From the sequence record MN850617.1: DNA of 42,476 bases; one strand, written 5' to 3'. Of the stretch, positions 1 to 42,476 are shown piece after piece. Below the pieces are notes generated by a model. The model was given only the letters and a program-made list of their open reading frames with translations, was not told the origin of the DNA and did not search any database. Numbering within the stretch: the stretch's first letter is position 1; each line of letters starts with the position of its first letter. The stretch is from Escherichia phage forsur. The position numbers and the translations under genes were made by a program.

Positions 1-487
1 CCGTATCATCTCCATGCTGTTGGAGAAGTTCCCGCAGGTTCACGTAGTGTGTGCCGAGGGCAACCACGATATGGCCAGCTCAATCTGGATGCGAGAGCTG
101 CTGCATGTACTGTACGCCGACGAGCCGCGTGTCACTGTTGACCGCAGCCCTGACCCGTACTACTGCTATGAGCATGGCGAGACGGCACTGTTCTTCCACC
201 ATGGTCACAAGCGTAAGGCTGAGCAACTGGAGACTGTGCTGGTTGCGAAGTTCCGCGAAGTGTATGGCCGAACCAAACATGCGTATGCACACGTTGGCCA
301 CCTGCATCACAAGAAGGTGCTGGAGTCTGCCGTCATGATTGTCGAGCAGCACCAGACGCTGGCAGCGAAAGATGCCTATGCTTCTCGTGGTGGTTGGCTG
401 AGCGAGCGCAGCGCGAGCGTGATTACTTACCACGCCCGGTACGGTGAGGTCGCACGATTCACCATTAGCCCGGAGATGTTGGAGTGA
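1..487 (+). CDS. calcineurin-like metallophosphoesterase, 3' portion of a gene that wraps around the window ends (5' portion at 41848..42476)
   Basis: Reading frame is open from position 2 with no upstream stop; contains phosphoesterase motifs GNHD, HHGH and GHLH. Motifs DYH and GDFLHWD sit at the window end in the same frame (the 2 terminal nt plus nt 1 form one codon). Stop TGA at 485..487. Confidence 0.75.
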   Translation, partial: RIISMLLEKFPQVHVVCAEGNHDMASSIWMRELLHVLYADEPRVTVDRSPDPYYCYEHGETALFFHHGHKRKAEQLETVLVAKFREVYGRTKHAYAHVGHLHHKKVLESAVMIVEQHQTLAAKDAYASRGGWLSERSASVITYHARYGEVARFTISPEMLE

Positions 488-708
488 GTAGAACCCTGTA
501 CCAAGAAGATGTGGTGCAGCTCAAAGATGACGGCCTCTCGATAGACTGGGAGGCCAACACGCAGGTCGAGCTGTACAAAGATGGCACCGTCTGTATCTCG
601 CAGGAAGGGGAGCAGGTGTGGGTGCCGTGGGCATATGTCAAAGATATTATCTTCGCTCTTGAGGAAGCACACGATGCACATGAAAGACACCGTAGTAGTA
701 GACCTTGA
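484..708 (+). CDS. hypothetical small acidic protein (GTG start overlapping upstream stop as GTGA)
   Basis: 74-codon ORF from the six-frame track; start codon overlaps the stop of the phosphoesterase gene. Overlaps the next gene by ~35 nt. No recognisable motif. Confidence 0.35.
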   Translation: MSRTLYQEDVVQLKDDGLSIDWEANTQVELYKDGTVCISQEGEQVWVPWAYVKDIIFALEEAHDAHERHRSSRP

Positions 709-1177
709 CGGCACACTGGCTGATGGCCGTTGGCGTCTGCACCTGCTGCCTCCACCGGAGCGTCGGCACCTTGATGAAGCGTGGGCCGAGTTCAACTTGG
801 CTGGCGCTGACGACCCAGCGTTTCAGGACACGATTGATATTGTGAACGCACTGGCCCTCACGTATCGCATTATCATCCTGACCGGACGCGGAGCCGTGGC
901 CCGTGAAGTAACCGAGCAGTGGCTCGATGACAATGGTGTGGTGTACGACAAGCTCATCATGCGTGAGATTGGCGACTGCCGCAAAGACACTGAGATGAAG
1001 CGTGCAGCGCTGGAAGACATTGGCATTGAGAATATTGTCTGTGCCTTTGATGACCTGCCGCACATCGTGGACTTCATGCGAAGCCTAGGCATTACCGTGT
1101 ATGAAGTTACCCGGTACGAGGACAACCATGAGTACGTCCACGCCAATGCGAAATACGATGGAGATAAAGATGCCTAA
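674..1177 (+). CDS. HAD-superfamily phosphatase-like protein
   Basis: ATG at 674 preceded by GAGGAAG; N-terminus MHMKDTVVVDLDGTLADG carries the HAD motif I (DxDGT). The ORF track starts it earlier at 581, but the RBS supports 674. Confidence 0.7.
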   Translation: MHMKDTVVVDLDGTLADGRWRLHLLPPPERRHLDEAWAEFNLAGADDPAFQDTIDIVNALALTYRIIILTGRGAVAREVTEQWLDDNGVVYDKLIMREIGDCRKDTEMKRAALEDIGIENIVCAFDDLPHIVDFMRSLGITVYEVTRYEDNHEYVHANAKYDGDKDA

Positions 1178-1706
1178 ACGTGGTGACAAGTTCTGTCTGG
1201 ATATCAACCGTGAATACCACAACGCTCGGCTCAATGAGCTGCGCGATAACGGTGTCATCCTAACCTACGACGAGCCTTACGATGTACCGAATGACAGTCG
1301 TGATTACTACACCTGCGTGTACAACGGCAAGACTGAGGTGCTGGTGCTGGAACCATATGAGGTGCAGGAAGTGCAGACGGCATTCATCCCGGTAGAGCCG
1401 GAGGCCGGGCCGGGCGGTATGAAGTATGACGGCGGCAAGCCACGCATGGCCCTGCTGCTCGACGGCTGCCCGAATGCACTGGAGGCTGTGGCCAGCGTGC
1501 TGACCTTCGGCGCTCAGAAGTATGCAGCTCACTCATGGCAGACTGTGCCGGAAGGTGAGGAACGTTACAAGTCAGCGCTGCTCCGGCACCTGACTGCGGT
1601 GGGTAAGGGCGAAGAACTCGACCCGGAATCTGGCCTGCACCATCTGGCGCACGCCGCTTGCAACGCACTGTTCATTCTCGAACTGGCATTAAGGAAAACT
1701 AAATGA
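1170..1706 (+). CDS. hypothetical protein with dATP/dGTP pyrophosphohydrolase-like N-terminal-type domain (tentative)
   Basis: ATG at 1170 after GGAGATAAAG; segment KYDGGKPRMALLLDGCPNALEAVASVLTFGAQKYAAHSW resembles, from memory, the KYD..GK..FGA.KY..NW signature of phage dNTP pyrophosphohydrolase N-domains. Domain call unverified. Confidence 0.5.
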   Translation: MPKRGDKFCLDINREYHNARLNELRDNGVILTYDEPYDVPNDSRDYYTCVYNGKTEVLVLEPYEVQEVQTAFIPVEPEAGPGGMKYDGGKPRMALLLDGCPNALEAVASVLTFGAQKYAAHSWQTVPEGEERYKSALLRHLTAVGKGEELDPESGLHHLAHAACNALFILELALRKTK

Positions 1707-1882
1707 GTGCTTTACTTTATGTGATTGCTATGGCATGGTTCGTATACTTCACGCTGGGTTGCCTGAACGCCTGCAAGTCATACAACCTGAGCCACTACCC
1801 GCAACGCGCCGGGTCTGCTGGCTTCATCGTATGGCTGCTGGTAGCTGTGCTGCCAACGTGGTTCATTTGTTACTTAGCATAG
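1703..1882 (+). CDS. small hydrophobic (membrane) protein, 59 aa
   Basis: ATG 1703 overlaps upstream stop (ATGA), RBS AAGGAAAA upstream; product MSALLYVIAMAWFVYFTLGCLNACKSY...FIVWLLVAVLPTWFICYLA has two hydrophobic segments. Absent from the ORF track, presumably because it is under 60 aa. Confidence 0.45.
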   Translation: MSALLYVIAMAWFVYFTLGCLNACKSYNLSHYPQRAGSAGFIVWLLVAVLPTWFICYLA

Positions 1883-1890
1883 GAGATACG

Positions 1891-2124
1891 ATGAGCAGAT
1901 ACCAACGAGCCATTGAGGATACCGTGGTCGAGAAAGGTGTGTGCGGGGAGTGCCACGGCTGTGGCACATTCACCAGCATGACCATTCGACACGAGCTTGT
2001 CCAAACTGAATGTGAAGCCTGTGGTGGCACAGGCGTGACTGACCCGGCACTGCAACGTTCAGTGCTGCGGGAACAAGGTATGCGCTGCCAAGTGCAGCCG
2101 GGCTATGACCAACCAACGGAGTAA
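1891..2124 (+). CDS. small zinc-finger protein (CxxC...CxxC)
   Basis: ATG 1891 preceded by AGGAG; product contains CGECHGCG and CEACGG Cys pairs. Confidence 0.6.
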   Translation: MSRYQRAIEDTVVEKGVCGECHGCGTFTSMTIRHELVQTECEACGGTGVTDPALQRSVLREQGMRCQVQPGYDQPTE

Positions 2125-4559
2125 TGATGGACTTACTTGCTGAGCAGATTCGACTGGAAGAAGAAGCGCGAGCCAGACACCGCGAGGGCTGGCTGGATAA
2201 TATCAGAGAGGCGTTGGCCGCTGGCCGGGCTGGTTCAGTACCATTGCTCCAGCGTATGATGGTTGAGGCGTATCCTCAAGTTGAAGCTGCGATGCAAGAA
2301 CTCCTGAATGAAACTGCCCGTGGCTATGGTGCGCAGTACCGGACATACATGCGGGAGCTGGGGCCGCGAGCTTGTGCCTCACTCGCGTTGAGCATGGCTG
2401 TGTCCGGTGCCGCTGCTGAGCAAGCAGTGCTTAACTTGCTCAAGGACATGGGCAAGGCTCTCATGGCTGAGGTGGTGTACCTTCGGGCCAAGGCTGCCGG
2501 GCCTGTGCAGGCTGCGTACATGGCCAAGGTTAAGACTGACGTTAAGCGCTCTCGTTCCAAGTCAGCTAACCATGTGTATAACAAGGCGAAAGCGTCGGCG
2601 TCTAACGTTGGCGTTGAGCTGGATATCCTGCCACAGCGTGCGCTCATCACCATTGGTAAGATGATGATGAAGTGCATCGAGCCTACTGGTCTGCTGGTCA
2701 CTATGCGTGTCGGCGGCAACCACCGTCAGCGCGGCACCGCGCACTTCGCACTGCATGAAGATGTGCTGGCAACGATGAAAGATTGGATGGACTTGCCACG
2801 GGCAGACGGCCTGTGCTGTCCTCCAATGATTATCCCGCCAGCGCAGATTGCACGCGATGGTCGTAGTGGTATGTGGCACTCGCCGGGGCAGGCTGCCATG
2901 TACCGGGCAATCAGCCGCATGAACCACCGTGGCTACCGTGCGCTGGGTGTTGACCCACTGCCCATCATAGAGCCGTGTATGATGCTCAGCAGCGTTCCGT
3001 ACCGAGTTAACCCAATGGTATTGGAGTTCCTGAGAACGAACCGTACAGGCGTTATGGGGCTGCCTGTGCCGCCTCGTGAGCCTAAGCTCCCGTTCACCAT
3101 CCCGGCTGGTGTCAGCTTCGCTCAGTACATTAGCAAGTTCCCACCAGAAATGCAGCAGCAGATGGAGTCGGAAGCCCACGAGTACAAGGTGAAGACCCGT
3201 CTGTATTACAACGAGCTGCGCAAGTTCACGTCACAAATGCTGGCGCTGAACGGTGCAGTCAAAGAGGCCGAGCGCTATGCGCCATACGATAGGGTATATC
3301 TCCCGACTTACGCCGATACGCGGGGCCGAATTTATTATTCTTCGACCCTTAACCCTCAGTCCATCGACGCGGTGCGAGCGCTGCTCGAACTTGCTGAACC
3401 AGTGGCTCTCGGAGACGAGGGGCTGTTCTGGCTCAAGGTACATGTTGCGAATTGTTTTGGATACGACGCCACCGACTTCGACGACCGGGCGGCGTGGACG
3501 GACAAAACACTCCCCCGACTACGTGAGGCGTGCCGTCTTCCAGAGGCATTTGATTCGTTCTGGTCAGAAGCCGATAGCCCTATCTCAGCGTGGGCTGCTG
3601 CTGTTGAACTCATTCGAGCTATCGACTCAGGAAGTCCTGAGACTTATCCCTGCCGAGTGGTTACGCAGTGGGACGCTACATGTTCAGGACTCCAGCACCT
3701 CAGTGCGATGCTACGCGATGAGGTTGGAGGTGCTGCTGTCAATCTTGTCGATAGCGTGGGAAGAAAAGCAGACATATATCTTAAGACGGCAGCAGCGGCG
3801 ATGCAGGCTCTTGAAGAAAGTGAAGCGGCTGCGCCGACGACAATGGGTTCGTGGCTTGTTTCCATCGGCATTGTTCGGGCTATGGCCAAGAAGCCAGTGA
3901 TGACCTACGTGTACGGGGCAACCCGGCACGGCATGGTTGACTACTACTGCCTGTATCTGCGTGAGAACCGGGTCAAGCTGCCGGAGGGTAAGAGCCTGCT
4001 GGAGTGTGCTCAGTTCATTGCTGAGTTTATGTGGGCTGCTATCCCCCGCGTCGTGCCGAAAGCTGCCGAGCTGATGGCATGGTTGCAGGCTATCGCAGTA
4101 GAGGCTGCGAGCATGGGTGAGTACGTGGAGTTCACTGCGCCGTCCGGTCTTCGTGTGGTCAATCTGTATCAGGCCAGCAAAGAGATTGCGCTGAACAACA
4201 TCAACCTCATGGGTATCCACGGCATCAAGCTGCGCGAGTATCTGGATAAGCCAGATGGTCGCAAGTGTGCCGCTGCGATTGCTCCGAATTTTGTACACGC
4301 CATGGATGCCAGTCACATGATGAAGGTTCTGTGGGAGATGTGGAATAACGGGGTATACATGGTATCCATCCACGACTCGTTCGGTGTAGCGGCAGCCCAT
4401 GCTGGGTTACTGCACAAGGTCATCCGTGAAAAGTTTGTGCAGATGTATGAGGAATGTGACCCTATTCAGCAACTTGCGTCAGCATATAACCGTGAAGCTC
4501 CAGCTCGCGGTAATCTGGACATCCAGCTTGTGAAGAAATCAAGCAAGTTCTTCTGCTGA
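2124..4559 (+). CDS. single-subunit DNA-dependent RNA polymerase (T7-like)
   Basis: 811-aa ORF; contains QWDATCSGLQHLSAM (cf. T7 RNAP motif A DGSCSGIQHF) and VSIHDSFGV (cf. T7 motif C IHDSFG). Position immediately upstream of the structural module. Confidence 0.95.
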   Translation: MMDLLAEQIRLEEEARARHREGWLDNIREALAAGRAGSVPLLQRMMVEAYPQVEAAMQELLNETARGYGAQYRTYMRELGPRACASLALSMAVSGAAAEQAVLNLLKDMGKALMAEVVYLRAKAAGPVQAAYMAKVKTDVKRSRSKSANHVYNKAKASASNVGVELDILPQRALITIGKMMMKCIEPTGLLVTMRVGGNHRQRGTAHFALHEDVLATMKDWMDLPRADGLCCPPMIIPPAQIARDGRSGMWHSPGQAAMYRAISRMNHRGYRALGVDPLPIIEPCMMLSSVPYRVNPMVLEFLRTNRTGVMGLPVPPREPKLPFTIPAGVSFAQYISKFPPEMQQQMESEAHEYKVKTRLYYNELRKFTSQMLALNGAVKEAERYAPYDRVYLPTYADTRGRIYYSSTLNPQSIDAVRALLELAEPVALGDEGLFWLKVHVANCFGYDATDFDDRAAWTDKTLPRLREACRLPEAFDSFWSEADSPISAWAAAVELIRAIDSGSPETYPCRVVTQWDATCSGLQHLSAMLRDEVGGAAVNLVDSVGRKADIYLKTAAAAMQALEESEAAAPTTMGSWLVSIGIVRAMAKKPVMTYVYGATRHGMVDYYCLYLRENRVKLPEGKSLLECAQFIAEFMWAAIPRVVPKAAELMAWLQAIAVEAASMGEYVEFTAPSGLRVVNLYQASKEIALNNINLMGIHGIKLREYLDKPDGRKCAAAIAPNFVHAMDASHMMKVLWEMWNNGVYMVSIHDSFGVAAAHAGLLHKVIREKFVQMYEECDPIQQLASAYNREAPARGNLDIQLVKKSSKFFC

Positions 4560-4586
4560 ATAAAGCATTGTATTCCTTGCTTATTT

Positions 4587-4609
4587 ATGAAAGTGACTAT
4601 AGTGATAGA
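4587..4609 (+). promoter_or_regulatory. candidate phage RNAP promoter (T7/SP6-class core ACTATAG), putative +1 G at 4602
   Basis: ATGAAAGTGACTATAGTGATAG; the ACTATAG heptamer matches the -6..+1 core shared by T7 and SP6 promoters. Lies in the intergenic gap just after the RNAP gene. Exact inverted copy at 26463..26485; 14-mer direct copy at 4854..4867. Confidence 0.5.
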
Positions 4610-4666
4610 ATCACGCTACCGGTAGCCCCGTCAGTGGCGGGGGTGCTGCCACTCAGAGAGGATTGT

Positions 4667-4852
4667 ATGGGTAAAGAATCTCCATTAGATAGAGTAACAT
4701 TCACTAAAGCTCAGATAGCTCTACTGGAAAAGCACTTCGGTACATGGGTACAGGTAGGCAGAACAGTAACACCTGACACTAACCTACCACTGATTAACAG
4801 AGAAGCTGGTAAGCAGGATGTACTGGACTTCATCCGTGAAAGAGTGATTTGA
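4667..4852 (+). CDS. hypothetical protein (61 aa)
   Basis: ATG 4667 preceded by GAGAGG; the ORF track starts it earlier at 4568 but that start lacks an RBS and covers the promoter-like element. Confidence 0.5.
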   Translation: MGKESPLDRVTFTKAQIALLEKHFGTWVQVGRTVTPDTNLPLINREAGKQDVLDFIRERVI

Positions 4853-4853
4853 A

Positions 4854-5273
4854 ATGAAAGTGACTATTATGGGAAATACAACGCACACGACTATGCCTCT
4901 TGACATTCGGCGTGCGGTGGCCGAGGGCATACAAGCCGAGCGGCCATGGTCAGACCTATCTCCCGATGTGATAGTCGAACGCATGTACGAGGCCACTGCC
5001 GCTGGTTGCGTTGACGTTTACATTACTGCCGACGACGATGGCCTCATGGCTGTTGCTCACATCGGCAGGTTATTCGATATTCATGTGGGCGAGATGGTGG
5101 TCATTATGGCCTCATACGTCTGGCCCCAGTACAGAAACCGTGGAGTGATGCGTGCCATCCTCCGTGTACTCAAAGACGTGGCCCGTTCCGAGGGTGTACG
5201 TTGGTGCGGTTACTCCCACATGGTGCGGCCTTACGTTCAGGAGTACCGCTTCATAGATTTGGAGAAACCGTAA
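4854..5273 (+). CDS. hypothetical protein (139 aa; alternative start 4869)
   Basis: ORF in track; first 14 nt are a copy of the promoter-like 14-mer ATGAAAGTGACTAT, so the true start may be the in-frame ATG at 4869. Confidence 0.6.
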   Translation: MKVTIMGNTTHTTMPLDIRRAVAEGIQAERPWSDLSPDVIVERMYEATAAGCVDVYITADDDGLMAVAHIGRLFDIHVGEMVVIMASYVWPQYRNRGVMRAILRVLKDVARSEGVRWCGYSHMVRPYVQEYRFIDLEKP

Positions 5274-5533
5274 TGGGTAGCGTAGGTAAAGTTTTCAAGG
5301 GGATTGGCTCGGTCTTTGGACTAGGTAGCCAGAAACCCCAGTACACGATTAAGACTGACCCGAATCAGGTCAAGGCTGAAACCTTGAATGCAAACTTGCA
5401 GGCTGATTTGGCGAACGATAACACCCCGACGATTCAGGCAGGTGGTCAGGTTACTTCGGCCTCCGACACTTTATCGAGCCGACGCCGCCGCACCGGAACG
5501 GGTGTAGCAAGCAACCTCGGCATCGGGAGTTAA
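5273..5533 (+). CDS. hypothetical small protein upstream of portal gene
   Basis: ATG 5273 overlaps upstream stop (TAATG) and follows GGAGAAACC; 86 aa, Gly/Ser-rich. Confidence 0.55.
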   Translation: MGSVGKVFKGIGSVFGLGSQKPQYTIKTDPNQVKAETLNANLQADLANDNTPTIQAGGQVTSASDTLSSRRRRTGTGVASNLGIGS

Positions 5534-5536
5534 CGA

Positions 5537-7102
5537 ATGGCATACGACGCGCAGAACGTCAGCTATGAATCGCTCTGGCAAAAGTACCGGGACAGTAACG
5601 TAGTCACCAAGGCTCGTGAGTACAGTCGTTACACGTTGGCCAAGCTGGTCAGTGAATACGACCGCGCCGAGGTAGACGACATGAACCGCCAGCAGATTAC
5701 TCGTGACTACCAATCTGTCGGCGCTCTGCTCGTTAACAACCTCGTCGCTCGACTGGGTGAGTTCCTGTTCCCGGCATCAGCCCGGTTCGTAAAGCTGAAA
5801 CTCGATAAGGTGTCTGACCAACAGCGGCAGCAAATGTCCAAGGTCAATCAGGCACTCATCACTATTGAAAAGGGCATCGTAGACAAAGCCAAAGAGAACG
5901 GCGGCTACGCTGACCTGTTAATGACCATTGCCCAACAAGCAGTCACTGGTAACGCCGCGCTGTACCGCGATATGGAAACTGGAACGTACCGAGTGTACGG
6001 GCTGGAATCCTTCGTGGTGCAGCGCGACGGTCGTGGCGTTGTTACGGACGCCGTGGTCAAAGAACGCATCCAGTGGGATTCCCTCGACAAAGCGTTTCAG
6101 GACATGCTGAACGCCAAGGGCTTCCGCTGTGGTGGTAACAAACGTGTGTGGCTGTACACTCGCGTCCTCCGGGTTAGGAAGGACAGTGGGCTGTATGGCT
6201 ATGAAGTAACGCAGCAGGTGGGCAACTACCAAGGCTGTGTCTACACCCCCGGTAAAGATTACTACCCTGAAAAAGTCTGCCCTTGGATTTTCCCAGTGTG
6301 GTCTTTGAAGTCTGGCGAGCATTATGGTCGCGGGATTGTCGAAGACCACGCTGGGGATTTCGCACGTCTGTCGATGCTGTCTGAGCACTCTGCTCTGTAC
6401 ATGCAAGAGGCGCTGCGTGTCCTGTGGATGCTGACTGGTTCTGGCGGCAACGTCGATGACATTGAATCCGCGCAGACTGGGCAGGTCGTACCTCTCCAGA
6501 ATGGCACCACGCTGTCTGGTCTTGAGGTCGGGGATTACCAGAAAGTTCAACAGGCCCGTGACGAAATTAACCAGATTGTGCAGCGACTCGCGCAGGCGTT
6601 CATGTACACTGGTGAGTTCCGTGACTCGGAGCGTACCACCGCAACCGAAGTGCAGCAGGTAGCAACCAGCGCCGAACGTGGGCTGGGTGGCCCGTACTCA
6701 ATGCAGGCAAAGACCCTCCAGATTCCTCTGGCATACGTCTTGCTCGCAGAGATTGACGAGTCCTCCGTACCTGACATTGTGGGCGATATCCTGACGCTTC
6801 AAGTTGAAGCTGGTCTGGATGCCCTCGGTCGCAGCATCGAAGCTGAGACGCTGATTCGTGCGCTCTCTGATTCGCAGGCAGCAATGGTTGCTGTCCAAAA
6901 CATTAACGGCGTTGCCAACGTCATTGACCCTCAGAAGGTCATTGAGGTTATCTTCGCTTCCAACGGCGTCGCGCTTGATGACTATCGTAAGTCAGCGCAA
7001 GACCTCGCAAATGAAGGTCAGCAAATCGACAGAGCAGCAGCCGCTGCCGCAGGCGTACAGCCGGGCGCAGTCGATGTAGCGCCGAACGTCGCTCAGATTT
7101 AA
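5537..7102 (+). CDS. portal (head-tail connector) protein
   Basis: 521 aa; segments FVVQRDGRGVV, KVCPWIFPV...GEHYGRGIVED and LGGPYSMQAKTLQIPLAYVLL parallel recalled T7 gp8 segments (YVVQRDAFGNVL, EACPYIPIR...GESYGRSYIEE, LGGVYSILSQELQLPLVRVLL). Confidence 0.9.
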   Translation: MAYDAQNVSYESLWQKYRDSNVVTKAREYSRYTLAKLVSEYDRAEVDDMNRQQITRDYQSVGALLVNNLVARLGEFLFPASARFVKLKLDKVSDQQRQQMSKVNQALITIEKGIVDKAKENGGYADLLMTIAQQAVTGNAALYRDMETGTYRVYGLESFVVQRDGRGVVTDAVVKERIQWDSLDKAFQDMLNAKGFRCGGNKRVWLYTRVLRVRKDSGLYGYEVTQQVGNYQGCVYTPGKDYYPEKVCPWIFPVWSLKSGEHYGRGIVEDHAGDFARLSMLSEHSALYMQEALRVLWMLTGSGGNVDDIESAQTGQVVPLQNGTTLSGLEVGDYQKVQQARDEINQIVQRLAQAFMYTGEFRDSERTTATEVQQVATSAERGLGGPYSMQAKTLQIPLAYVLLAEIDESSVPDIVGDILTLQVEAGLDALGRSIEAETLIRALSDSQAAMVAVQNINGVANVIDPQKVIEVIFASNGVALDDYRKSAQDLANEGQQIDRAAAAAAGVQPGAVDVAPNVAQI

Positions 7103-8368: not shown

Positions 8369-9361
8369 ATGGCCGACAACTACTATCAGCCGAATCAGTT
8401 CCGTCCACACTGGGGTGGTGCGAACTCTGATAACGACATTCACCTTGAGGTGTATGACCGTGATGTGCAGACCCAGTTCATCTACAACTCCATCTTCCGC
8501 AGCGGCCTGACCAACTTCAAGTCTGTTGCGAACCAGTCCAACACTTGGCGTGGCGACCGTCTCGGCTCCGTGTCTGTGAAGGGCCGTAAGTCTGGTCAGT
8601 CTCTGGACAACCAGCCAGTTCGCTCTGAGAAGCTGATTGTCACTGTGGATACCGTGTCTTACATCCGTATCCCGATTGACTATCAGGACGACTGGACTGC
8701 GCCGGACTTCCGTGCTGAGCTGACCCGTAACATGGGTACTGCACAGGCGAAAGCGTTCGACCAAGCGCACGTCATCCAGCTCCAGAAGTCTGCTGACTTC
8801 GTTCCTCCGACCTCTCTGGCAGGCGCGTTCAACTCCGGTATCAAGGAGAAAGTAACGCTGACTGGCACCGTGGCTTCTGAGGAAGACGATGCAAGCGCAC
8901 TGGTGCATGGTCACAAGAAAGTCATTGAGGCGTTCATTCGCCGCGACGCCGACCTTGGCCGTCTGGTAACGCTGATTGACCCGGCGTGGTTCAGCATCCT
9001 GCTGGAGCACAAGAAACTGATGAACGTTGAGTTCACTGGTGGTCGTGGTGTGAACGACTTCGCTATGCGTCGTGTTGCTTACGTGAACGGTATCCGTATC
9101 ATCGAGAGCAACGCATTCCCGCAGGCAGCAATCACCAACCACATCCTCGGTGCCGACTTCAACGTCACCGCCGAAGAAATCAAGCGTAAGATGATTATCT
9201 TCGACCCGTCTCTGGCTCTGGTCACTGTCGAAGCCCAACCGCTATTCAACCGCGTGTGGGATGACGAACGTGAACTGACCAACGTTCTGGACAGCTTCCA
9301 CATGTACACCGTGGGTCAGCGTCGTCCTGACGTGGTAGGCGTGGTTACTACCGAAGCCTAA
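8369..9361 (+). CDS. major capsid protein
   Basis: 330-aa ORF in the conserved position after the scaffold gene, followed by a hairpin terminator as in T7-like phages; RBS AAGGA upstream. Confidence 0.85.
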   Translation: MADNYYQPNQFRPHWGGANSDNDIHLEVYDRDVQTQFIYNSIFRSGLTNFKSVANQSNTWRGDRLGSVSVKGRKSGQSLDNQPVRSEKLIVTVDTVSYIRIPIDYQDDWTAPDFRAELTRNMGTAQAKAFDQAHVIQLQKSADFVPPTSLAGAFNSGIKEKVTLTGTVASEEDDASALVHGHKKVIEAFIRRDADLGRLVTLIDPAWFSILLEHKKLMNVEFTGGRGVNDFAMRRVAYVNGIRIIESNAFPQAAITNHILGADFNVTAEEIKRKMIIFDPSLALVTVEAQPLFNRVWDDERELTNVLDSFHMYTVGQRRPDVVGVVTTEA

Positions 9362-9371
9362 TGGTAAACTC

Positions 9372-9394
9372 GAAGCCCTTCATTGAGGGGCTTC
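9372..9394 (+). terminator. hairpin downstream of capsid gene (terminator candidate)
   Basis: GAAGCCC-TTCATTGAG-GGGCTTC, a perfect 7-bp stem followed by TATGATTAT; position is analogous to the T7 terminator after gene 10. Confidence 0.5.
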
Positions 9395-9427
9395 TATGAT
9401 TATCGTTACTCACCCAAAGGAGGGTGC

Positions 9428-9616
9428 ATGAAAGTCATTGTTGCTGATAACGCTGGTGTTTCCTACCACATACCTGAGAGTCACATCTTCTGCTACTACG
9501 CAGATGCCACTGACCCTACGAAGACCACCGTTGTCCACGCAGCGAACGGCACGCAAATCTACAAGAGCACCTTCGACGGTACGCCTGCGGATTTGGATGC
9601 CATACTTACCAGTTAA
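9428..9616 (+). CDS. hypothetical protein (62 aa)
   Basis: ATG 9428 preceded by AAAGGAGGG; lies between capsid and tail tubular A genes. Confidence 0.5.
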   Translation: MKVIVADNAGVSYHIPESHIFCYYADATDPTKTTVVHAANGTQIYKSTFDGTPADLDAILTS

Positions 9617-36176: not shown

Positions 36177-36340
36177 AGGGGCGCAGCTATCGCCGTTGCT
36201 CTTGCGGCGGCTGCCTGCTGGTTGAGCAGGTCAAGGGCAAAGCCACTGGCAAACCGCTGGTGATTTACGAGTGTGAAAAGTGTGGAGCTAAGCAGTATGG
36301 AAGACAAGGTGTATCGAGCAGCACCCTTAACCCAGCGTGA
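36173..36340 (+). CDS. small zinc-ribbon protein (55 aa), speculative
   Basis: GTG start overlapping upstream stop (GTGA); product has CSCGGC...CEKCG (two Cys pairs ~20 residues apart); not in ORF track; overlaps next ORF. Confidence 0.35.
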   Translation: MKGRSYRRCSCGGCLLVEQVKGKATGKPLVIYECEKCGAKQYGRQGVSSSTLNPA

Positions 36341-36488
36341 ACAAGACACCATCCGGGCGCAGTACCGGAAGGGTGATGCGTTCCGTGGGGAAGAAGCATT
36401 GGGTGAGCGCTACAATGTGGCACCCGAAGATATCGTGGCTGTGGTTAACTTCACCTACCGTAAGGGGAAACAGAAGCATGATAAGTAA
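36297..36488 (+). CDS. hypothetical protein (63 aa)
   Basis: In-frame ATG within track ORF 36273..36488; weak RBS. Confidence 0.45.
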   Translation: MEDKVYRAAPLTQREQDTIRAQYRKGDAFRGEEALGERYNVAPEDIVAVVNFTYRKGKQKHDK

Positions 36489-37161
36489 TGCCGAAGCTAA
36501 GCGCGTGTGGGCAGAAGACATCTGCCGTCTGCTGCAATCCGAAGAACTGAACTTCGTGGTTGCCGGGGGAGGGGCAAGGGATACCGCGTTGGGTGTTGAG
36601 CCGAAGGACTACGACATTGTGGTCTTTGGTTGGGGTGGTGATGTGAGCCGTGTGGCTGGCCGACTGGACTGGCTGGACTCCAGACTGGAGGACTATGCCA
36701 AGCAGCACGAGCTGTCGTATGAATACATGCCGAGCTATCACGATGCAGCAGAGGGTGGCGACTTCGGCTCCCGGCTGTGGGGTGTGTATAAGATTGGCCC
36801 GGTCGATGTGATTATCAGTAAGTGTGGGTGCTGGTCACAGGTACTGAACGAGTTCGACTTCAACCTGAACCAGTTCTACTTCCCGTCCAGTATCCCGCGT
36901 TACTCCGGCCAGTACAGCCGTGACCCCGGCGAGTTCATGGCGTATCCGTATGAGCCGAACCTCACTGCCGAAGATGTGCAGTGGTTCCCGGCGCTGGCCA
37001 GCCTGGTAGAAAGCTATGATGACCTGCTGACTCTCCGTGTCTGCCGACCGGATGCCAGCCTGAGTCGTGTGGCTTACATGCTGGAGAAGCACGAGAAGTA
37101 TCTGCCAGCCATTGAAGCATACGTTAATCGTATGCCCGACCACTTAGGTGGCAAAGCATAG
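36478..37161 (+). CDS. Pol-beta-superfamily nucleotidyltransferase (CCA-adding / poly(A) polymerase head-domain-like)
   Basis: ATG 36478 with AAGGGGAAA upstream; VVAGGGARDTALGVEPKDYDIVVFG matches the recalled GG.VRD...DxD head-domain signature. Confidence 0.6.
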   Translation: MISNAEAKRVWAEDICRLLQSEELNFVVAGGGARDTALGVEPKDYDIVVFGWGGDVSRVAGRLDWLDSRLEDYAKQHELSYEYMPSYHDAAEGGDFGSRLWGVYKIGPVDVIISKCGCWSQVLNEFDFNLNQFYFPSSIPRYSGQYSRDPGEFMAYPYEPNLTAEDVQWFPALASLVESYDDLLTLRVCRPDASLSRVAYMLEKHEKYLPAIEAYVNRMPDHLGGKA

Positions 37162-37171
37162 CGGGGGATTG

Positions 37172-39637
37172 ATGGCTATTCGAGCACAGATTATCGACGT
37201 TGAAACTGAGAACCATGAGTGGTATGGGGAGCTGGCATCACCTCGCTGCCCTGACAACTACGTGGTGATGCAGGGACAGCGCGACTGTGTGCTGACCAAG
37301 GATGGCTGGGAGTTCTACAAGCGTGAGGAATATCGGTACGCATCCCGTGAGGATTGGCTGGCGAACAAGAGCCTGCACCTCCACCCGGATACGAACATAC
37401 TGGTTGCACACAACGCGCCGTATGAACTGAGCTGGTGGTTCGAGCATTACGGTGACGAGTTCAAGGCATTCCTCTTACGAGGTGGCCGCGTATTCTGTAC
37501 CGCTTATGCTGAGTATCTGCTGACACACCAGCAATCCCAGTACCCATCCTTGAACGAGACAGCACCGAAGTATGGTGGTACTCACAAGGTGGATGCAGTC
37601 AAGGCAATGTGGGAGTCAGGTTATCTGACCAGCCAGATTGACGCTGAGCTGCTGAGCGAGTATCTGTCCGGGCCGTCCGGCGATATCGAGAACACGACCA
37701 AGCTGTTCGTTGGTCAGTGGGCAGAGCTGACGAAGCAGGGCATGTTGCAGATGGCACTGACCCGGTTCGAAGGTATGCTCATGTGGGCGTACATGATGCA
37801 CTCCGGTCTGCACGTTGACCGTGAGGTAGCAGAGCGTAACCGCCGTGAGTTGCAGGATTCAATCAGTGGGTTAACCGAGACACTGATGGGCTACCTGCCT
37901 GCCGACATGCCGAGTGAAGCGCGTGAGCAATTCAAGTTCACGTCTGCATATCACATGAGCGCGTTCGTGTTCGGCGGCGTGATGAAGTACAAGGCGCGGG
38001 TCGAGCGCCGGGATGCCGATGGCAATCTCATTTACGTGAAGGTGGATGCACCACTGTTCAAGCGTGGCAAGGACAAGTGGCTCAAGCATACCAGCGAGTG
38101 CGTGTGGGATGATGAGACTGGGTTGTGGTATGACCCGGTTGAGAAGGTACACCAGACTATCTACTCCAGCGGCAAGCACAAAGGCGAGCCGAAGTTTGAG
38201 AAGCTGGCGACCGATGAGGTGGACACTAAGTGGGGTGAGGTACTGTTCCGGCTGCCCGGTCTGCTGCGTGTGCAGGACAGACGGGCGCGGGAGATTGCCG
38301 ACAACCTTGAGTGGGAAGACCCGAAGCGTCCGGGTGAATATCTCCGGCGCACTGGTGACTGGGTAGGTAAGCGCAAGCTGGCTGACGGTTCTCCTGTATT
38401 CAGTACGGCGGGTGAGGTGCTGGACATTCTGGCAGCTCGTAAGATTCCCGGCGTCGTGGAGATTGCTGACCGGGCCAAGGCGCAGAAAGACCTAGGCACC
38501 TACTACCTCAGCGAGACGTTTGATGAGGATGGCAACGTGACTGGCCAGTCGGGGATGATGCAGTTCATCCAGCCGGACAGTATCGTACACCACACCATCA
38601 ACATGACCGCGACTGAGACGACACGCTTGTCGTCGCAGCGACCGAACAGCCAGAACCTGCCGCGTAAAGGTACGAGTAAAGTTAAGCAGATGTTCACCTC
38701 CCGCTTTGGCGAAGGTGGCCGCATCGTTGAGGCTGACTACTCGGCACTGGAAGTGGTGGGGTTGGCCGGGTTCAGTAAGGACAAGAACCTGATTCGTGCA
38801 TTGCTCGATGGTATCGACATGCACTGTATGCGATTGTCTGCTCAACTCAATGAGCCATACGAGGACGTGCTTAAGAAGTGCAAGGATGAGTCCCATCCTG
38901 ACCATGCACGATACAGTCAGATGCGTACTGACATCAAGCCCAAGGCGTTCTCCTATCAGTATGGTGCAACAGCGCGGGGCATTGCCTACTCGACTGGTTG
39001 CTCGGAGGAAGAAGCACAGGCGTTCATCGACAACGAGAAGGGTCTGTTCCCGGAAGTTGAAGAATGGTTCGACGCTGTAATCTTCCCCGCCGTTGAGCGT
39101 AGTGGACAGAGCAACGTGTTCAAGGAACAAGATGAGAACGGACGGTGGCAGGTGTATCGCCGTGGTCACTTCCGCTCGCCGGGTGGAACTTGTTATTCAT
39201 TCCGTCAGTACGAGAAATGGAACAAGGCGGCGCGTGCTTATCTGATGGAATACAAACCAACCCAAATGCGTAACTATCCTATTCAGGGTGAGACAGCGTT
39301 TTGGGTACAGGGAATTGGTGGGCTGCTGTTCCGCTGGCTGCTGGCCAATGACTTCTTTGGTGGGCGTGTGGTTCCCATCAACCAAGTGCATGACGCATTC
39401 TATTTCGACGTGGCACCTGACTGCCCTCACGAGTTCTTCGTTGGACTCAAGGCAATCATGGAATCCATACCGGAATACTACAACCACATCTGGCCTGAAT
39501 ATAACCTGACAGTTCCGTTTCCGGCAGAGGTAGAAGCTGGGCCAAGCATGTACGAAAAGCATCACGTAGAGACGACAGCCGAAGAAGTGCTGGAGTTCAA
39601 ACGTAACTTCCTGACGAGTAAGGGTATTAGCATATGA
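37172..39637 (+). CDS. family A DNA polymerase with 3'-5' exonuclease domain
   Basis: Exo motif IIDVETE; polymerase motif A ADYSALEVV, motif B KPKAFSYQYGATARG, motif C QVHDAFYFD; ATG 37172 with GGGGGA upstream (track lists GTG 37148). Confidence 0.95.
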   Translation: MAIRAQIIDVETENHEWYGELASPRCPDNYVVMQGQRDCVLTKDGWEFYKREEYRYASREDWLANKSLHLHPDTNILVAHNAPYELSWWFEHYGDEFKAFLLRGGRVFCTAYAEYLLTHQQSQYPSLNETAPKYGGTHKVDAVKAMWESGYLTSQIDAELLSEYLSGPSGDIENTTKLFVGQWAELTKQGMLQMALTRFEGMLMWAYMMHSGLHVDREVAERNRRELQDSISGLTETLMGYLPADMPSEAREQFKFTSAYHMSAFVFGGVMKYKARVERRDADGNLIYVKVDAPLFKRGKDKWLKHTSECVWDDETGLWYDPVEKVHQTIYSSGKHKGEPKFEKLATDEVDTKWGEVLFRLPGLLRVQDRRAREIADNLEWEDPKRPGEYLRRTGDWVGKRKLADGSPVFSTAGEVLDILAARKIPGVVEIADRAKAQKDLGTYYLSETFDEDGNVTGQSGMMQFIQPDSIVHHTINMTATETTRLSSQRPNSQNLPRKGTSKVKQMFTSRFGEGGRIVEADYSALEVVGLAGFSKDKNLIRALLDGIDMHCMRLSAQLNEPYEDVLKKCKDESHPDHARYSQMRTDIKPKAFSYQYGATARGIAYSTGCSEEEAQAFIDNEKGLFPEVEEWFDAVIFPAVERSGQSNVFKEQDENGRWQVYRRGHFRSPGGTCYSFRQYEKWNKAARAYLMEYKPTQMRNYPIQGETAFWVQGIGGLLFRWLLANDFFGGRVVPINQVHDAFYFDVAPDCPHEFFVGLKAIMESIPEYYNHIWPEYNLTVPFPAEVEAGPSMYEKHHVETTAEEVLEFKRNFLTSKGISI

Positions 39638-40521
39638 CCGCATCAGTATTGAACCGCATGAACTCCATCGTCGAACAGTATGTTGACGAGGAAGAACTTG
39701 ACTTTAACGAAGCCACGTCTGGTGGTGGTAAGCTCCTGCCGGAAGGTAAGGCGCTGGCCCGTCTGGTTGGCTACGTTGAGGTGGGGCCGCACGCCACTAA
39801 GCAGGCACCGGACAAACCGCCAGTCAATAAGTTCTTCCTCCAGTTCGCACTGTGGGGCAAGGCCAAGAACGGCGAGACTTACCACGAAGTTGTCAATGGT
39901 AAGATGGTGCCGGGCAAAGTTCGCACGCAGTTCATCGCTGTGAAGAAAGACCTGAACAGTAAGTCCGGCGCTTACAAATTGTTCAAGCGCATGAACCCGG
40001 ACAAGACTGCGAAGCACTTCGCGCAGTTGCTGAACCACACGTTCATCGTTCCGATTACCCACAACGAATCTGGTGAGGGTGATAACAAGAAGGTGTATGC
40101 GAACATCGACCTTGAGAACATCATGCTCGCTGTTGACCCGGTAACTGACCAGCCGTACCCGGTGCCGGAAGTCGAAGACGAGACGCTGTTCAAGCTGTTC
40201 CTGTGGAACCGTCCGACCAAGGAAGACTGGGAATCGCTGTACATCGACGGCAAGAACGACGATGGTAAATCCAAGAACTGGATTCAGGACAAGCTGCTTG
40301 AGTCTCCTGAGTTCCCCGGCTCACCGCTCGACCTGCTGCTCAATGGTGCTGGCGCTGGCTCTGCCATCGCTGAGCTGCCGGAGCTGGGTGATGCAGGCCA
40401 GCCGGAGGAAGTGAAGGAAGTCAAGCAGGAAGTCGCTGAGCTTCCGGTGAAGGGTGAAGCCGACAGCAAGAAAGAGCCGGACGTGACTGGCGAAGCTGAC
40501 TTCGGTTTGCCTAGCCTGTAA
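39634..40521 (+). CDS. hypothetical protein with strongly acidic C-terminal tail (possible ssDNA-binding protein)
   Basis: 295 aa; C-terminal ~60 aa rich in E/D ending ...GEADFGLPSL, reminiscent of T7 gp2.5-type acidic tails; function unverified. Confidence 0.7.
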   Translation: MTASVLNRMNSIVEQYVDEEELDFNEATSGGGKLLPEGKALARLVGYVEVGPHATKQAPDKPPVNKFFLQFALWGKAKNGETYHEVVNGKMVPGKVRTQFIAVKKDLNSKSGAYKLFKRMNPDKTAKHFAQLLNHTFIVPITHNESGEGDNKKVYANIDLENIMLAVDPVTDQPYPVPEVEDETLFKLFLWNRPTKEDWESLYIDGKNDDGKSKNWIQDKLLESPEFPGSPLDLLLNGAGAGSAIAELPELGDAGQPEEVKEVKQEVAELPVKGEADSKKEPDVTGEADFGLPSL

Positions 40522-40557: not shown

Positions 40558-41532
40558 ATGAGTAGACTTCAACGCTTACTCCACAATGCAGAGGAACTTG
40601 ATGACCAGTTTGATGGTTACGTGTCTGGTCGTATCTTGCTGTGCGATGCTGACTCCACGGTCTACGTCGCGGCAGCAACCACGAAGAACATCGAGACAGC
40701 GAAGACACGATTCTGTTCCGGGGTACTGACCGCCAAGTTCCTCGCCAATGCTCAGTCAGTTCGTATCGAGTTGACCGCTGCGGAGTGTACGAAAGCTGGA
40801 CGGTACAAGCTGCGTGGGGCCAAGCTGTACCAAGGCAACCGAGACAAAGACCGCAAGCCCGGTCTGGTCGAACCGTTGCGTAAAGCAATTGGCCGGAACA
40901 TGTTCAACGTCCCGGATGGTGAGGACTGGTACGTCCACCTGAACTTTGAGTTCGAGGCAGACGATACCTTAATCATGGATGCGTGGACGATTGGCATTAA
41001 CGATGCAGTAATCTACAGCGCGGATAAAGACCTGCGTTGTTGGCCGGGCAGATTCCTTGACCCGTATGACAACAAGGTGCTGGAGCCGTGCGTTGGTATT
41101 GGCAGGCTGTGGTGGCATGAAACGAAAAGCGACAAGTCGCTGGTCGGCCATGGGCCTATCTTCTTTTGGGCGCAGATGTTGATGGGCGACACCGCCGACA
41201 ACATTGCTGGCGTGAAGAAGGTTGGTAAGCAGACTGCCTACGACATGCTGGTTGATTATCAAGAGATTGATGATGAATCAGTGGTTGCGGAATTGGTGCT
41301 GCGTGAGTACATGCAGCGTGACCAGAACCCGTGGCCGGAGGCAGTGGCGCTGTGGCTGTACCGCACGCCGACCTACTCATTCGCAGCCCACTTGAACACG
41401 CTGACCTTGAGCAAGGAGCTGCGTGTCTGGCTGCATAAGAAACTGGGTGAGGAATGGTATGCGGAAAGTGACTGGCGCGACTCTGTTGCAGCTTCGGAAG
41501 AATGCGATGGGTTGCAACTGCCCACTCTGTGA
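40558..41532 (+). CDS. 5'-3' exonuclease (T7 gp6-like)
   Basis: ILLCDADSTVYVAAA, FEADDTLIMDAW...AVIYSADKDLRCWP and FFWAQMLMGDTADNIAGV parallel recalled T7 gp6 segments (ILVMDGDWLVFQAM, LEGDDVMGVI...AVIISCDKDFKTIP, WHLFQTIKGDITDGYSGI). Confidence 0.85.
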   Translation: MSRLQRLLHNAEELDDQFDGYVSGRILLCDADSTVYVAAATTKNIETAKTRFCSGVLTAKFLANAQSVRIELTAAECTKAGRYKLRGAKLYQGNRDKDRKPGLVEPLRKAIGRNMFNVPDGEDWYVHLNFEFEADDTLIMDAWTIGINDAVIYSADKDLRCWPGRFLDPYDNKVLEPCVGIGRLWWHETKSDKSLVGHGPIFFWAQMLMGDTADNIAGVKKVGKQTAYDMLVDYQEIDDESVVAELVLREYMQRDQNPWPEAVALWLYRTPTYSFAAHLNTLTLSKELRVWLHKKLGEEWYAESDWRDSVAASEECDGLQLPTL

Positions 41533-41839
41533 TGAGCCGATGGTTGACCTCAAGCTCATGGTGGTTGACCACGACCATGTGACTGGAGAGATTCGCGGTG
41601 TTATCTGCCGCTGGTGTAATGCTCAGCTCGGTAAGGTGGAGAACTCTGCCAACCGAGCAAAGCGCCAGCGCACAGTGGATGACTGGTTGGATAGCGCCAT
41701 CGAGTGGCGACGTAAGCAGCACACTGGTCTGATGTATCCGACACATAAGACAGAGGCTGAGAAGAAAGCGGCAGCAGCCGACAGACGTAAAAAGGCAGCA
41801 GCAGCTAAAGCGCGTGCCATAATCACTAAGGGGAAATGA
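41459..41839 (+). CDS. recombination endonuclease VII
   Basis: CNCPLCDEPM...VDHDHVTGEIRGVICRWCNAQLG matches the Endonuclease VII zinc-binding/catalytic signature; start uncertain (41459 with GAGGA upstream, or 41507); overlaps exonuclease gene end. Confidence 0.8.
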   Translation: MRKVTGATLLQLRKNAMGCNCPLCDEPMVDLKLMVVDHDHVTGEIRGVICRWCNAQLGKVENSANRAKRQRTVDDWLDSAIEWRRKQHTGLMYPTHKTEAEKKAAAADRRKKAAAAKARAIITKGK

Positions 41840-41847
41840 TGACGAAG

Positions 41848-42476
41848 TTAAGTAACGCACAGCTCAAGGCAGATATCGCTGAGGGTCTTGGCACCACTGA
41901 GATTGCTGAGAAGCATGACATGACCACGGGTGCCATTCGATACCGGAAGCGCCAGCTTGCCAAGAGCGGCTGGAGTCCTGAGCACGACATGACCAAGGAA
42001 GTGCCGGAGCCGTATGCGGTTAAGGGTACGTCCACGCTGTATGATAAGGACGGCAACGTGGTCATGCAGTGGGTGAAGACTGCGCTCGACCGTGAGCAGG
42101 AGCTGGCCCTGCTGCAAGAGGCAGTGGATGCAATCAGCGAAACCATTACCCCGGAAGTGGCCCGGCCATTCAGCGGTGGCCCGGCACCTGCTGAGCTGCT
42201 GAACCTGTTCATCCTCACTGACTACCACCTCGGTATGCTGGCGTGGTCAGAGGAAACTGGTGATGACTGGGATATGAAGATTGCCGAAGACCTGCTGGTC
42301 AAGTGGTTCGCGGCAGCCATTGCCAGTGCGCCACCAGCACAGGTTGCTATCTTCGGACAGCTCGGTGACTTCCTACACTGGGATGGGTTAGATGCAGTGA
42401 CGCCATCGAGTGGGCATGTGCTGGATGCTGACACGCGATTCCAGAAGCTGGTGCGTGTGGCTATCCGGGCGCAGCG
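41848..42476 (+). CDS. calcineurin-like metallophosphoesterase, 5' portion (continues into 1..487); N-terminal HTH-like segment
   Basis: No stop before window end; carries phosphoesterase motif I (LTDYH) and II (GDFLHWD); N-terminal TEIAEKHDMTTGAIRYRKRQLAKSGW looks like a helix-turn-helix. Confidence 0.75.

Follow-up and report, generated by a model that had tools for sequence, protein, structure and literature searches.

Do the hydrolase-type genes that lie in a run upstream of the RNA polymerase gene of Escherichia phage forsur act together on nucleotides or DNA ends, or are they separate functions that share an operon? Forsur (MN850617, 42,476 bp; Bonnellvirus, Autographiviridae; in the list of Olsen et al. 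2020, PMC7552041) encodes in this run a metallophosphoesterase (MPE) with an N-terminal helix-turn-helix (HTH), a HAD phosphatase and a protein with a DUF5664 domain, and an original prediction made from the sequence had read the arrangement as pointing to coordinated nucleotide-pool or DNA-end processing. The window, i.e. the whole stretch of DNA that was analysed, is the complete forsur genome of 42,476 bases. Through a combination of profile searches, structure models and comparative genomics we established the folds, conserved catalytic residues, operon structure and gene neighbourhoods of these proteins. We tentatively favour, with somewhat less than even confidence, an explanation in which forsur, a phiKMV-like coliphage, carries in its middle operon for DNA metabolism four accessory genes that are transcribed together, are coupled in translation and encode independent enzymes and not an obligate complex. 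These accessory genes sit between the exonuclease and endonuclease VII genes and the RNA polymerase gene, and are largely ordinary members of known phage families in a lineage-typical arrangement.

All forsur genes discussed here lie on the plus strand. The record is circularly permuted, with the open reading frame (ORF) that leaves its 3′ end resuming in frame at base 1. This frame encodes the MPE (375 residues), the 5′ part of which (codons 1-213) occupies 41836-42476 and the 3′ part, with the motifs GNHD, HHGH and GHLHH, 1-487, the frame being continuous across the junction. The deposited start of the record falls inside this gene, which looks truncated at both linear ends and is missed by ORF tools. 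The MPE gene is followed by orf74 (484-708), which encodes a small conserved protein, by the gene for a predicted stand-alone PNKP-type HAD phosphatase (674-1177; 167 residues; PF25109, phrog_415) and by that for the DUF5664 protein (1170-1706; 178 residues; PF18909), a predicted deoxynucleoside triphosphate (dNTP) pyrophosphohydrolase. Three consecutive genes had been predicted at 674-1706; the HAD and DUF5664 genes do lie within that interval, whereas the MPE gene lies outside it. Nor is the MPE gene directly next to the HAD gene, as orf74 intervenes, and the run thus comprises four genes and not three. Its placement upstream of the gene for the single-subunit phage RNA polymerase (2124-4559; 811 residues; an ORF whose counterpart in phage glasur is annotated as RNA polymerase) was correct, with two small ORFs lying in between. 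Phage glasur is the closest record in the phage collection searched, sharing 95% identity over window positions 1-4600 and an annotation that is collinear with the window.

The stop codon of the endonuclease VII gene and the start codon of the MPE gene overlap in ATGATGA, and the MPE stop codon and the GTG start codon of orf74 overlap in GTGA. Further downstream, the 3′ end of orf74 overlaps the start of the HAD gene by 35 nt, the HAD and DUF5664 genes overlap by 8 nt (ATGCCTAA), and the DUF5664 stop codon overlaps the start of the next ORF, encoding 59 residues, in ATGA; the last two junctions agree with the overlapping start and stop codons described originally. Internal promoters or terminators that would divide the gene run were considered and rejected, with promoter-like and terminator-like matches in 1-5600 being no commoner than in shuffled sequence. 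Given the overlapping junctions and the lack of any excess of promoter-like or terminator-like sites, the simplest view is that of one transcription unit with translational coupling. The intervening orf74 is a real small gene. Its 74 codons are intact in all Bonnellvirus relatives, with 44-91% amino-acid identity and always overlapping both neighbours, and its product has a weak SH3-like match to the Pfam family IN_DBD_C (8.8e-5). It is fast-evolving yet always intact, and its slot is taken by an HNH homing endonuclease gene in the podovirus contig L110 described below. We rejected a correspondence between orf74 and the small ORF that separates the MPE gene from the DUF5664 gene in Vibrio phage K373, as the two share no similarity and the Vibrio ORF encodes a DUF7768 protein.

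The HAD protein carries the predicted DLDGTL motif at its N-terminus (D10-L-D12-G-T14-L), and its residues 5-146 match PF25109 HAD_PNKP (1.5e-15, 58 bits against a cut-off of 27.6), in addition to a match of the protein to phrog_415 (1e-55). A profile built from 36 homologues matches the phosphatase domains of Capnocytophaga (C. gingivalis) Pnkp1 (PDB 4xrp; 2.3e-18) and T4 Pnkp (1ltq; 1.6e-10). HAD motifs I-IV are all present, comprising the DxDxT nucleophile motif (D10-L-D12-G-T14), T70, K109 and D126-D127, and among the 36 homologues D10, D12, R21, R72, D105, K109 and D126 are invariant, with T70 and D127 nearly so. These positions (D10/D12/R21/T70/R72/D105/K109/D126/D127) correspond to D165/D167/R176/S211/R213/D254/K258/D277/D278 of T4 Pnkp, where R72 and D105 align directly to R213 and D254, and R21 was paired with R176 by spacing, each lying 11 residues from the nucleophile. 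These nine positions of T4 Pnkp, R176 included, are essential to its phosphatase activity. The forsur protein thus shares with the T4 and C. gingivalis enzymes both the PF25109 fold family and the equivalents of essential residues, but it differs from T4 Pnkp in standing alone, with no P-loop 5′-kinase domain and no partner ligase found.

An N-terminal P-loop kinase domain is absent from the HAD protein, which begins only nine residues before the nucleophile. The 120 homologues listed are all 149-264 residues long and carry phosphatase-type (HAD superfamily) Pfam domains only, without a kinase domain, and a motif scan found no kinase-type Walker A in the HAD protein or in any unassigned ORF of the genome. 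With no kinase domain in the protein or its homologues and no kinase-type Walker A in the genome, the protein is of the stand-alone 3′-phosphatase type and not a kinase/phosphatase. Its conserved catalytic residues lead us to predict a stand-alone PNKP-type polynucleotide or nucleotide 3′-phosphatase, with polynucleotide ends as a putative substrate. Close relatives of forsur such as glasur already annotate the three hydrolase genes, as 'phosphoesterase', 'putative polynucleotide 5′ kinase/3′ phosphatase' and 'putative phosphodiestherase'; the GenBank label '5′ kinase/3′ phosphatase' overstates the HAD protein because it lacks a kinase domain. The earlier observation that no polynucleotide kinase P-loop or DNA ligase lies nearby also holds, as the sole Walker-A match within a recognised NTPase gene is that of the helicase and the glasur annotation contains no ligase. 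No ligase candidate was found in the window, in which not all short early ORFs were scanned with profiles, and none is annotated in the near-identical glasur genome.

In the DUF5664 protein, the segment described as dNTP-pyrophosphohydrolase-like is well supported. Residues 83-176 match PF18909 dGTP_diPhyd_N (3.3e-34, 117.2 bits against a cut-off of 27) and keep the conserved residues of a characterised enzyme, the stand-alone DUF5664 protein of Arthrobacter phage Wayne. The Wayne protein converts dATP, dUTP and dGTP to deoxynucleoside monophosphates (dNMPs), with a kcat of 0.48 s-1 and a Km of 20 µM on dATP (2026 NAR paper, PMC12884076). We located the Wayne gene as gp51 with the family profile (1.4e-14); its product is 46% identical to the forsur protein over a 69-residue core in which the signature GAxKY…H.W…RH…GE..DPE.G..HLA is kept. 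The residues invariant among 42 homologues (K117, Y118, H121, W123, Y133, R139, H140, E148, D151, E153 and H158) are likewise matched in Wayne gp51. We predict on this basis that the forsur DUF5664 domain is a dNTP pyrophosphohydrolase, the activity having been demonstrated for the homologue.

The C-terminal domain of this protein is strongly conserved, while the first ~80 residues are hypervariable or absent among homologues. An AlphaFold model (mean predicted local distance difference test score, pLDDT, 87) places an SH3/KOW/Tudor-like barrel at residues 1-67, followed by a disordered linker and a four-helix domain. Searches of PDB sequences, both with the single sequence and with a profile, returned no match. 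PF18909 is common to Wayne gp51, to the DUF5664-DUF550 enzyme of Acinetobacter phage SH-Ab 15497 and to the forsur protein, which differs from the SH-Ab 15497 enzyme in having no DUF550 domain and from both in having its own lineage-specific SH3-like N-domain. A Z-genome (2-aminoadenine) context, with a MazZ-type enzyme, was considered and rejected: the forsur protein ends after the DUF5664 domain, without DUF550, and the genome inventory (glasur annotation and family scans) holds no PurZ, DatZ, DpoZ, PurA-like or HD-type gene. Judged by this inventory forsur is not a 2-aminoadenine phage. The domain occurs in 795 phage records. Most of 60 records sampled, from Vibrio and Pseudomonas phages, label DUF5664 proteins 'endolysin' or 'endolysin; inhibits RNA polymerase', a label that derives from phrog_5033 and phrog_2252 (e.g. 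L168:5358-5882, LUZ24 gp38 and PaP3 orf30). Because the DUF5664 domain is a predicted dNTP pyrophosphohydrolase, this label looks erroneous and is almost certainly a propagated annotation error.

The MPE matches phrog_704 'DNA repair exonuclease' at 8.4e-145, and yielded no Pfam match at E ≤ 0.1 (the PF00149 threshold not being reached), no NCBIfam match and no PDB match even with a profile. PF00149 is precomputed in only one of the 120 homologues listed; at the sequence level the family is divergent and is captured by phrog_704. Its five metal-binding motifs (D129/H131, G177-D178, G234-N235-H236-D237, H283 and G313-H314-L-H316) are invariant among 50 sequences, as is a C-terminal ASRGGW loop. 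In the structure model, which is the AlphaFold model of the 99%-identical P0001 (mean pLDDT 80), a three-helix HTH (residues 6-42) is followed by a beta-hairpin (59-83), a helix and then the MPE core. The HTH-like segment proposed at the N-terminus is therefore present, the model helices at 6-42 being joined by precomputed GerE, HTH_8, HTH_1 and HTH_23 Pfam matches in several homologues. A Foldseek search with the model returned 80 PDB matches at E ≤ 0.001 (best E ~1e-6, template-modelling score ~0.4), of which the top listed have the MPE fold (PolD DP1 exonuclease, Mre11, Rv0805, Vps29, YfcE and GpdQ), and structure prediction bears out the assignment in that the model superposes on Mre11, PolD-DP1 and Rv0805. 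None of the HAD, MPE and DUF5664 proteins was assigned to an unrelated family, the HAD and MPE motifs fall at catalytic positions and the DUF5664 domain keeps the conserved residues of a characterised enzyme, so that the three family assignments stand.

In general, the MPE family is large and uniform in architecture. One search recovered 4,969 proteins at E ≤ 1e-5, and clustering at 50% identity gave 5,682 clusters; the metal-binding residues are invariant across these ~5,700 sequence clusters. The best-scoring 150 cluster representatives are mostly ~370-480 residues long, with shorter ones matching part of the profile. The family occurs in 2,041 phage records, which include Kagunavirus, Jerseyvirus-type, Dhillonvirus-type, Drexlerviridae, Klebsiella siphoviruses, Jedunavirus, Vibrio and Campylobacter phages. 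With Mre11/SbcD, PolD-DP1 and A10ZJ24 gp48/Bxb1 gp47, all of them phage or repair proteins acting on DNA, the MPE shares the calcineurin-like fold and the five metal motifs. It has no sequence-level relationship to Mre11/SbcD, however, and the genome inventory holds no Rad50/SbcC SMC-like ATPase gene; furthermore, the N-terminal HTH and beta-hairpin and the C-terminal ASRGGW loop are unique to the forsur MPE family in comparison with Mre11 and gp47. Mycobacteriophage A10ZJ24 gp48 degrades host DNA, silences defence genes and is needed for phage replication (PMC12287305). We rejected orthology of the MPE to this A10ZJ24 gp48/Bxb1 gp47 type, with hhalign giving a probability of 5% against Bxb1 gp47 and the similarity lying at the level of motifs only.

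Gene neighbourhoods provide the means of asking whether the three families belong together. Profiles of the three families were run against two sets of 80 IMG/VR loci, one surrounding relatives of the DUF5664 protein and the other relatives of the MPE; the MPE loci represent 22 MPE clusters at 75% identity, and their neighbours were counted within 3 kb. Neither partner lies within 10 kb in 62 of the 80 DUF5664 loci. Another 12 carry a HAD gene immediately upstream, all of them phiKMV-like with an RNA polymerase gene downstream, and six, from Bonnellvirus and LIMEzero relatives, have all three genes. The HAD-DUF5664 pair was found only within this one syntenic phiKMV-like lineage, so that shared descent explains the pair as well as shared function does. 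Similarly, 71 of the 80 MPE loci lack a HAD gene. Where the MPE does have such neighbours, they are HAD (9 loci; 3 MPE clusters), DUF5664 (14 loci; 5 MPE clusters), DUF6378 (15 loci; 4 MPE clusters) and dNMP kinase (7 loci; 2 MPE clusters).

The arrangements of these neighbours vary widely. MPE-DUF5664 neighbourhoods occur in at least five lineages, some with the order reversed and DUF5664 directly upstream of the MPE gene (e.g. L100:5546-5992; PF18909 2.5e-23), and ~250 Vibrio phage records, e.g. K373, have the order MPE-DUF7768-DUF5664. MPE-HAD neighbourhoods are found in unrelated backbones (Kagunavirus, Jedunavirus and L090-type contigs): in Jedunavirus VLCpiM12a the order is MPE-HAD-dNMP kinase, and in Kagunavirus phiEc3 the MPE gene and one for an 'acid phosphatase' (phrog_415) form a cassette on the opposite strand among tail genes. 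The podovirus contig L110, the backbone of which is at most 26% identical to the window where similarity is detectable at all, has the order exonuclease-endonuclease VII-MPE-HNH-HAD-DUF5664, followed directly by an ATP-dependent DNA ligase gene and then the portal gene. The L110 ligase gene (8563-9564; phrog_114, 7e-53) begins inside the end of the DUF5664 gene, in the slot that in the window holds the small ORFs and the RNA polymerase gene. An order of resolvase, MPE and Q-like genes recurs in many unrelated loci (L108, L114, L164), as at window positions 41507-2124. In the Vibrio phages the DUF7768 gene (L168:5020-5355) lies between the MPE and DUF5664 genes. DUF6378 genes (e.g. L161:4460-5068) lie near the MPE gene in the 15 loci counted above. 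Both are uncharacterised families and candidates for the same functional neighbourhood as the MPE.

These comparisons indicate that the three genes are independently mobile. At the same time, inherited synteny alone does not account for the frequency and the variety of arrangement with which MPE-HAD and MPE-DUF5664 neighbourhoods recur. Coordinated nucleotide-pool or DNA-end processing, as originally predicted, is consequently weakened by genes that are mostly apart (62/80 and 71/80), and what stands of it is a loose link through the recurring MPE-HAD and MPE-DUF5664 neighbourhoods and the divergent trio. Nucleotide-pool and DNA-end processing roles are alike compatible with the data, which do not separate them.

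In the explanation we favour, that of separate accessory enzymes in one operon, each product would condition the substrates of phage DNA synthesis through DNA-end clean-up, host-DNA breakdown or dNTP-pool editing. The HTH-MPE would be a Mn/Mg-dependent phosphodiesterase that is recruited to DNA by its N-terminal HTH and beta-hairpin, with the nicking or resection of host DNA or branched DNA as its most likely action. Acting by way of an aspartyl-phosphate at D10 as in T4 Pnkp, the HAD protein would strip 3′-phosphates, with 2′,3′-cyclic phosphates or the phosphate of 3′-dNMPs as further possible targets, and so provide the phage polymerase, the exonuclease and host ligase with usable 3′-OH ends. 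With neither a ligase nor a kinase gene found in the genome, the phage would rely on host LigA, for which nicks must present clean 3′-OH and 5′-P termini. The DUF5664 protein would hydrolyse selected dNTPs (dUTP, dATP, dGTP or damaged analogues) to dNMP and pyrophosphate, as its homologue does, its variable SH3-like N-domain probably serving as a lineage-specific adaptor. Jointly, the products may feed and clean the route from host DNA through dNMPs to phage DNA. We infer the substrates of the MPE and HAD proteins, the physiological role of each protein and any cooperation between them from the features described above, and regard the genes as loosely linked.

Several points weigh against this explanation. 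The MPE resembles Bxb1 gp47 at the superfamily level only and has no sequence-level relative of known function; it might instead act on nucleotides as a phosphodiesterase, on proteins as a phosphatase, or as a regulator. Hydrolysis of dATP and dGTP seems to oppose the phage's own replication, and the true DUF5664 substrate may differ. The Kagunavirus MPE-HAD cassette, lying among tail genes beside a superinfection-immunity gene, resembles an accessory or anti-defence moron more than a replication function. In addition, the recurring adjacency of MPE with DUF5664 and with HAD in unrelated genomes hints at a cooperation tighter than that of independent enzymes.

The main alternative is a coupled cascade on free nucleotides, which we consider unlikely. 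The HAD protein would convert dNTP to deoxynucleoside diphosphate (dNDP), the MPE dNDP to dNMP, and the DUF5664 protein dNTP directly to dNMP; such a cascade might serve to remodel or drain the nucleotide pool for host shut-off, to exclude competitor phages, or to destroy immune nucleotides (chain terminators or signalling molecules). A two-enzyme dNTP sink with this combination of folds is found in the PUA-Calcineurin-CE-HAD (PUA-Cal-HAD) anti-phage system of E. coli ECOR28, in which the HAD turns dATP into dADP, from which the calcineurin domain then makes dAMP; in rare variants the HAD is retained while a MazG-like enzyme takes over from the calcineurin domain (bioRxiv 10.64898/2026.01.15.699771). 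The cascade is also favoured by the recurrence of MPE-DUF5664 and MPE-HAD neighbourhoods in unrelated phages, including the Vibrio phage records, by the frequency of dNMP kinase and DUF6378 genes as MPE neighbours, and by weak matches of the HAD protein to models of class B acid phosphatases (nucleotidases). However, the HAD protein retains the Arg and Asp that are specific to polynucleotide 3′-phosphatases, the MPE bears a DNA-binding-type HTH in every family member, and the three genes are usually found singly. Defence-system (PADLOC) and NCBIfam scans of the proteins gave no informative match. PUA-Cal-HAD is moreover an effector of host defence that senses through a PUA domain and assembles into filaments, whereas the forsur proteins lack a PUA domain and their HAD is of the polynucleotide-phosphatase type, such that the likeness is one of analogy between fold combinations. 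We continue to regard the products as separate, loosely linked accessory enzymes.

A more speculative extension, to which we give little credence, is that all three hydrolases, perhaps joined by the small proteins encoded between them, could form a mobile nucleotide-destroying module directed against the host or its immunity, by analogy a phage counterpart of the calcineurin/MazG plus HAD effectors with which bacteria deplete nucleotides. If true, the module could remove immune or alarm nucleotides, for instance chain-terminating ddhNTPs or the dNMP triggers that arise from chromosome breakdown, or starve competing phages, and would not be replication housekeeping.

Alternatively, the MPE may be a phosphatase with a regulatory role or with protein substrates, corresponding in position to lambda NinI, or it may act mainly through its HTH as a transcription or recombination factor like Bxb1 gp47; the run of hydrolases would then be coincidental. 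We find this improbable. A Q-like gene lies directly downstream of the MPE gene in 22 of the 80 MPE loci (2 MPE clusters) and a resolvase (endonuclease VII, RusA or RuvC) or Vsr-like nuclease gene directly upstream in 30, and the window itself has the order endonuclease VII-MPE…Q-like zinc ribbon-RNA polymerase. In lambda the nin order is a resolvase-type gene, the NinI phosphatase gene and Q, and the MPE-fold ninI gene thus occupies a slot, after a junction resolvase and before Q, similar to that of many lambdoid-type HTH-MPE loci. Bxb1 gp47, a recombination directionality factor, has the MPE fold. The forsur MPE is, however, ~150 residues longer than NinI, has an HTH, and lacks the PPP signatures GDxxDRG and GNHE, having GDFLHWDG and GNHD in their place; its structural neighbours are nucleases and phosphodiesterases, with no PPP phosphatase among the top 50 Foldseek matches. 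The invariance of the metal-binding residues across ~5,700 clusters furthermore argues for catalysis and against a regulatory role.

Finally, RNA (tRNA) end-healing against host ribotoxins by the HAD protein, possibly with the MPE as a 2′,3′-cyclic phosphodiesterase, is a doubtful proposition, as is a variant in which a pol-beta-type nucleotidyltransferase might rebuild 3′ ends after cuts by an anticodon nuclease or RNase. The best solved relatives of the HAD protein are the phosphatase domains of the RNA-repair enzymes Pnkp1 and T4 Pnkp, MPE-fold healing domains are known in bacterial Pnkp (Clostridium thermocellum), and the genome does encode a nucleotidyltransferase (ORF 36337-37161, probable start near 36475; phrog_1614 'nucleotidyltransferase', 4e-42) with a pol-beta/CCA-adding-type motif (VVAGGGARDTALGVEPKDYDIVV; GGxxRD…DxD). 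This protein has no significant match to CCA-adding enzymes, and its other matches (poly(A) polymerase, PcnB) are insignificant. As neither a 5′-kinase domain nor an RNA or DNA ligase was found in the genome, a cut tRNA would not be resealed by the T4 route; removal of the 3′-phosphate would also block host RtcB, and the gene context is that of DNA metabolism. T4-style RNA-end healing without a kinase and a ligase is thus unlikely.

The accessory genes are flanked by further genes of the same closely packed series. Upstream lie the genes for DNA polymerase (37148-39637), a phrog_862 protein of 295 residues (39634-40521), a 5′-3′ exonuclease (40558-41532) and, directly 5′ of the MPE gene, endonuclease VII, a Holliday-junction resolvase (41507-41839; PF02945 3.5e-14, phrog_423 1.4e-31), the start codon of which is uncertain. 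Within the region 41423-41839 the Endonuclease_7 Pfam match begins 5′ of the ATG at 41540 that serves as start in the glasur annotation, and a start at 41540 would cost the protein its N-terminal CxxC (MGCNCPLCDEPM); translation probably begins around 41507 or further upstream, inside the 3′ end of the exonuclease gene. The phrog_862 protein has a long acidic C-terminal tail with DFGLPSL as its last residues, which recalls single-stranded DNA-binding proteins of the T7 gp2.5 type. The nucleotidyltransferase gene, upstream of the DNA polymerase gene, occupies the slot where some relatives have a DNA ligase gene; its product is of the pol-beta type and not a ligase, and a hidden ligase or kinase was looked for and not found. 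Downstream of the DUF5664 gene, a 59-residue protein with two hydrophobic segments (1703-1882) is predicted from its hydropathy profile to be a small membrane protein and has no family match in Pfam and phrog scans. It is followed, directly 5′ of the RNA polymerase gene, by a 77-residue zinc ribbon that is annotated as antitermination-Q-like (1891-2124; phrog_6060 1.5e-13; CxxCxGxG-type cysteine pairs).

Together these findings indicate that many database records carry incorrect or exaggerated labels for the HAD and DUF5664 genes. With 2,041 phage records and ~5,700 clusters at 50% identity, the HTH-MPE family is very large; it is uncharacterised and has neither a Pfam model nor a solved structure. 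Its repeated occurrence beside nucleotide enzymes (DUF5664, DUF6378, dNMP kinase and PNKP-type HAD) and junction resolvases is the main remaining interest of this locus. A function found for one phage MPE could assign thousands of genes, and could show whether phages share the enzyme toolkit of bacterial dNTP-depletion immunity.

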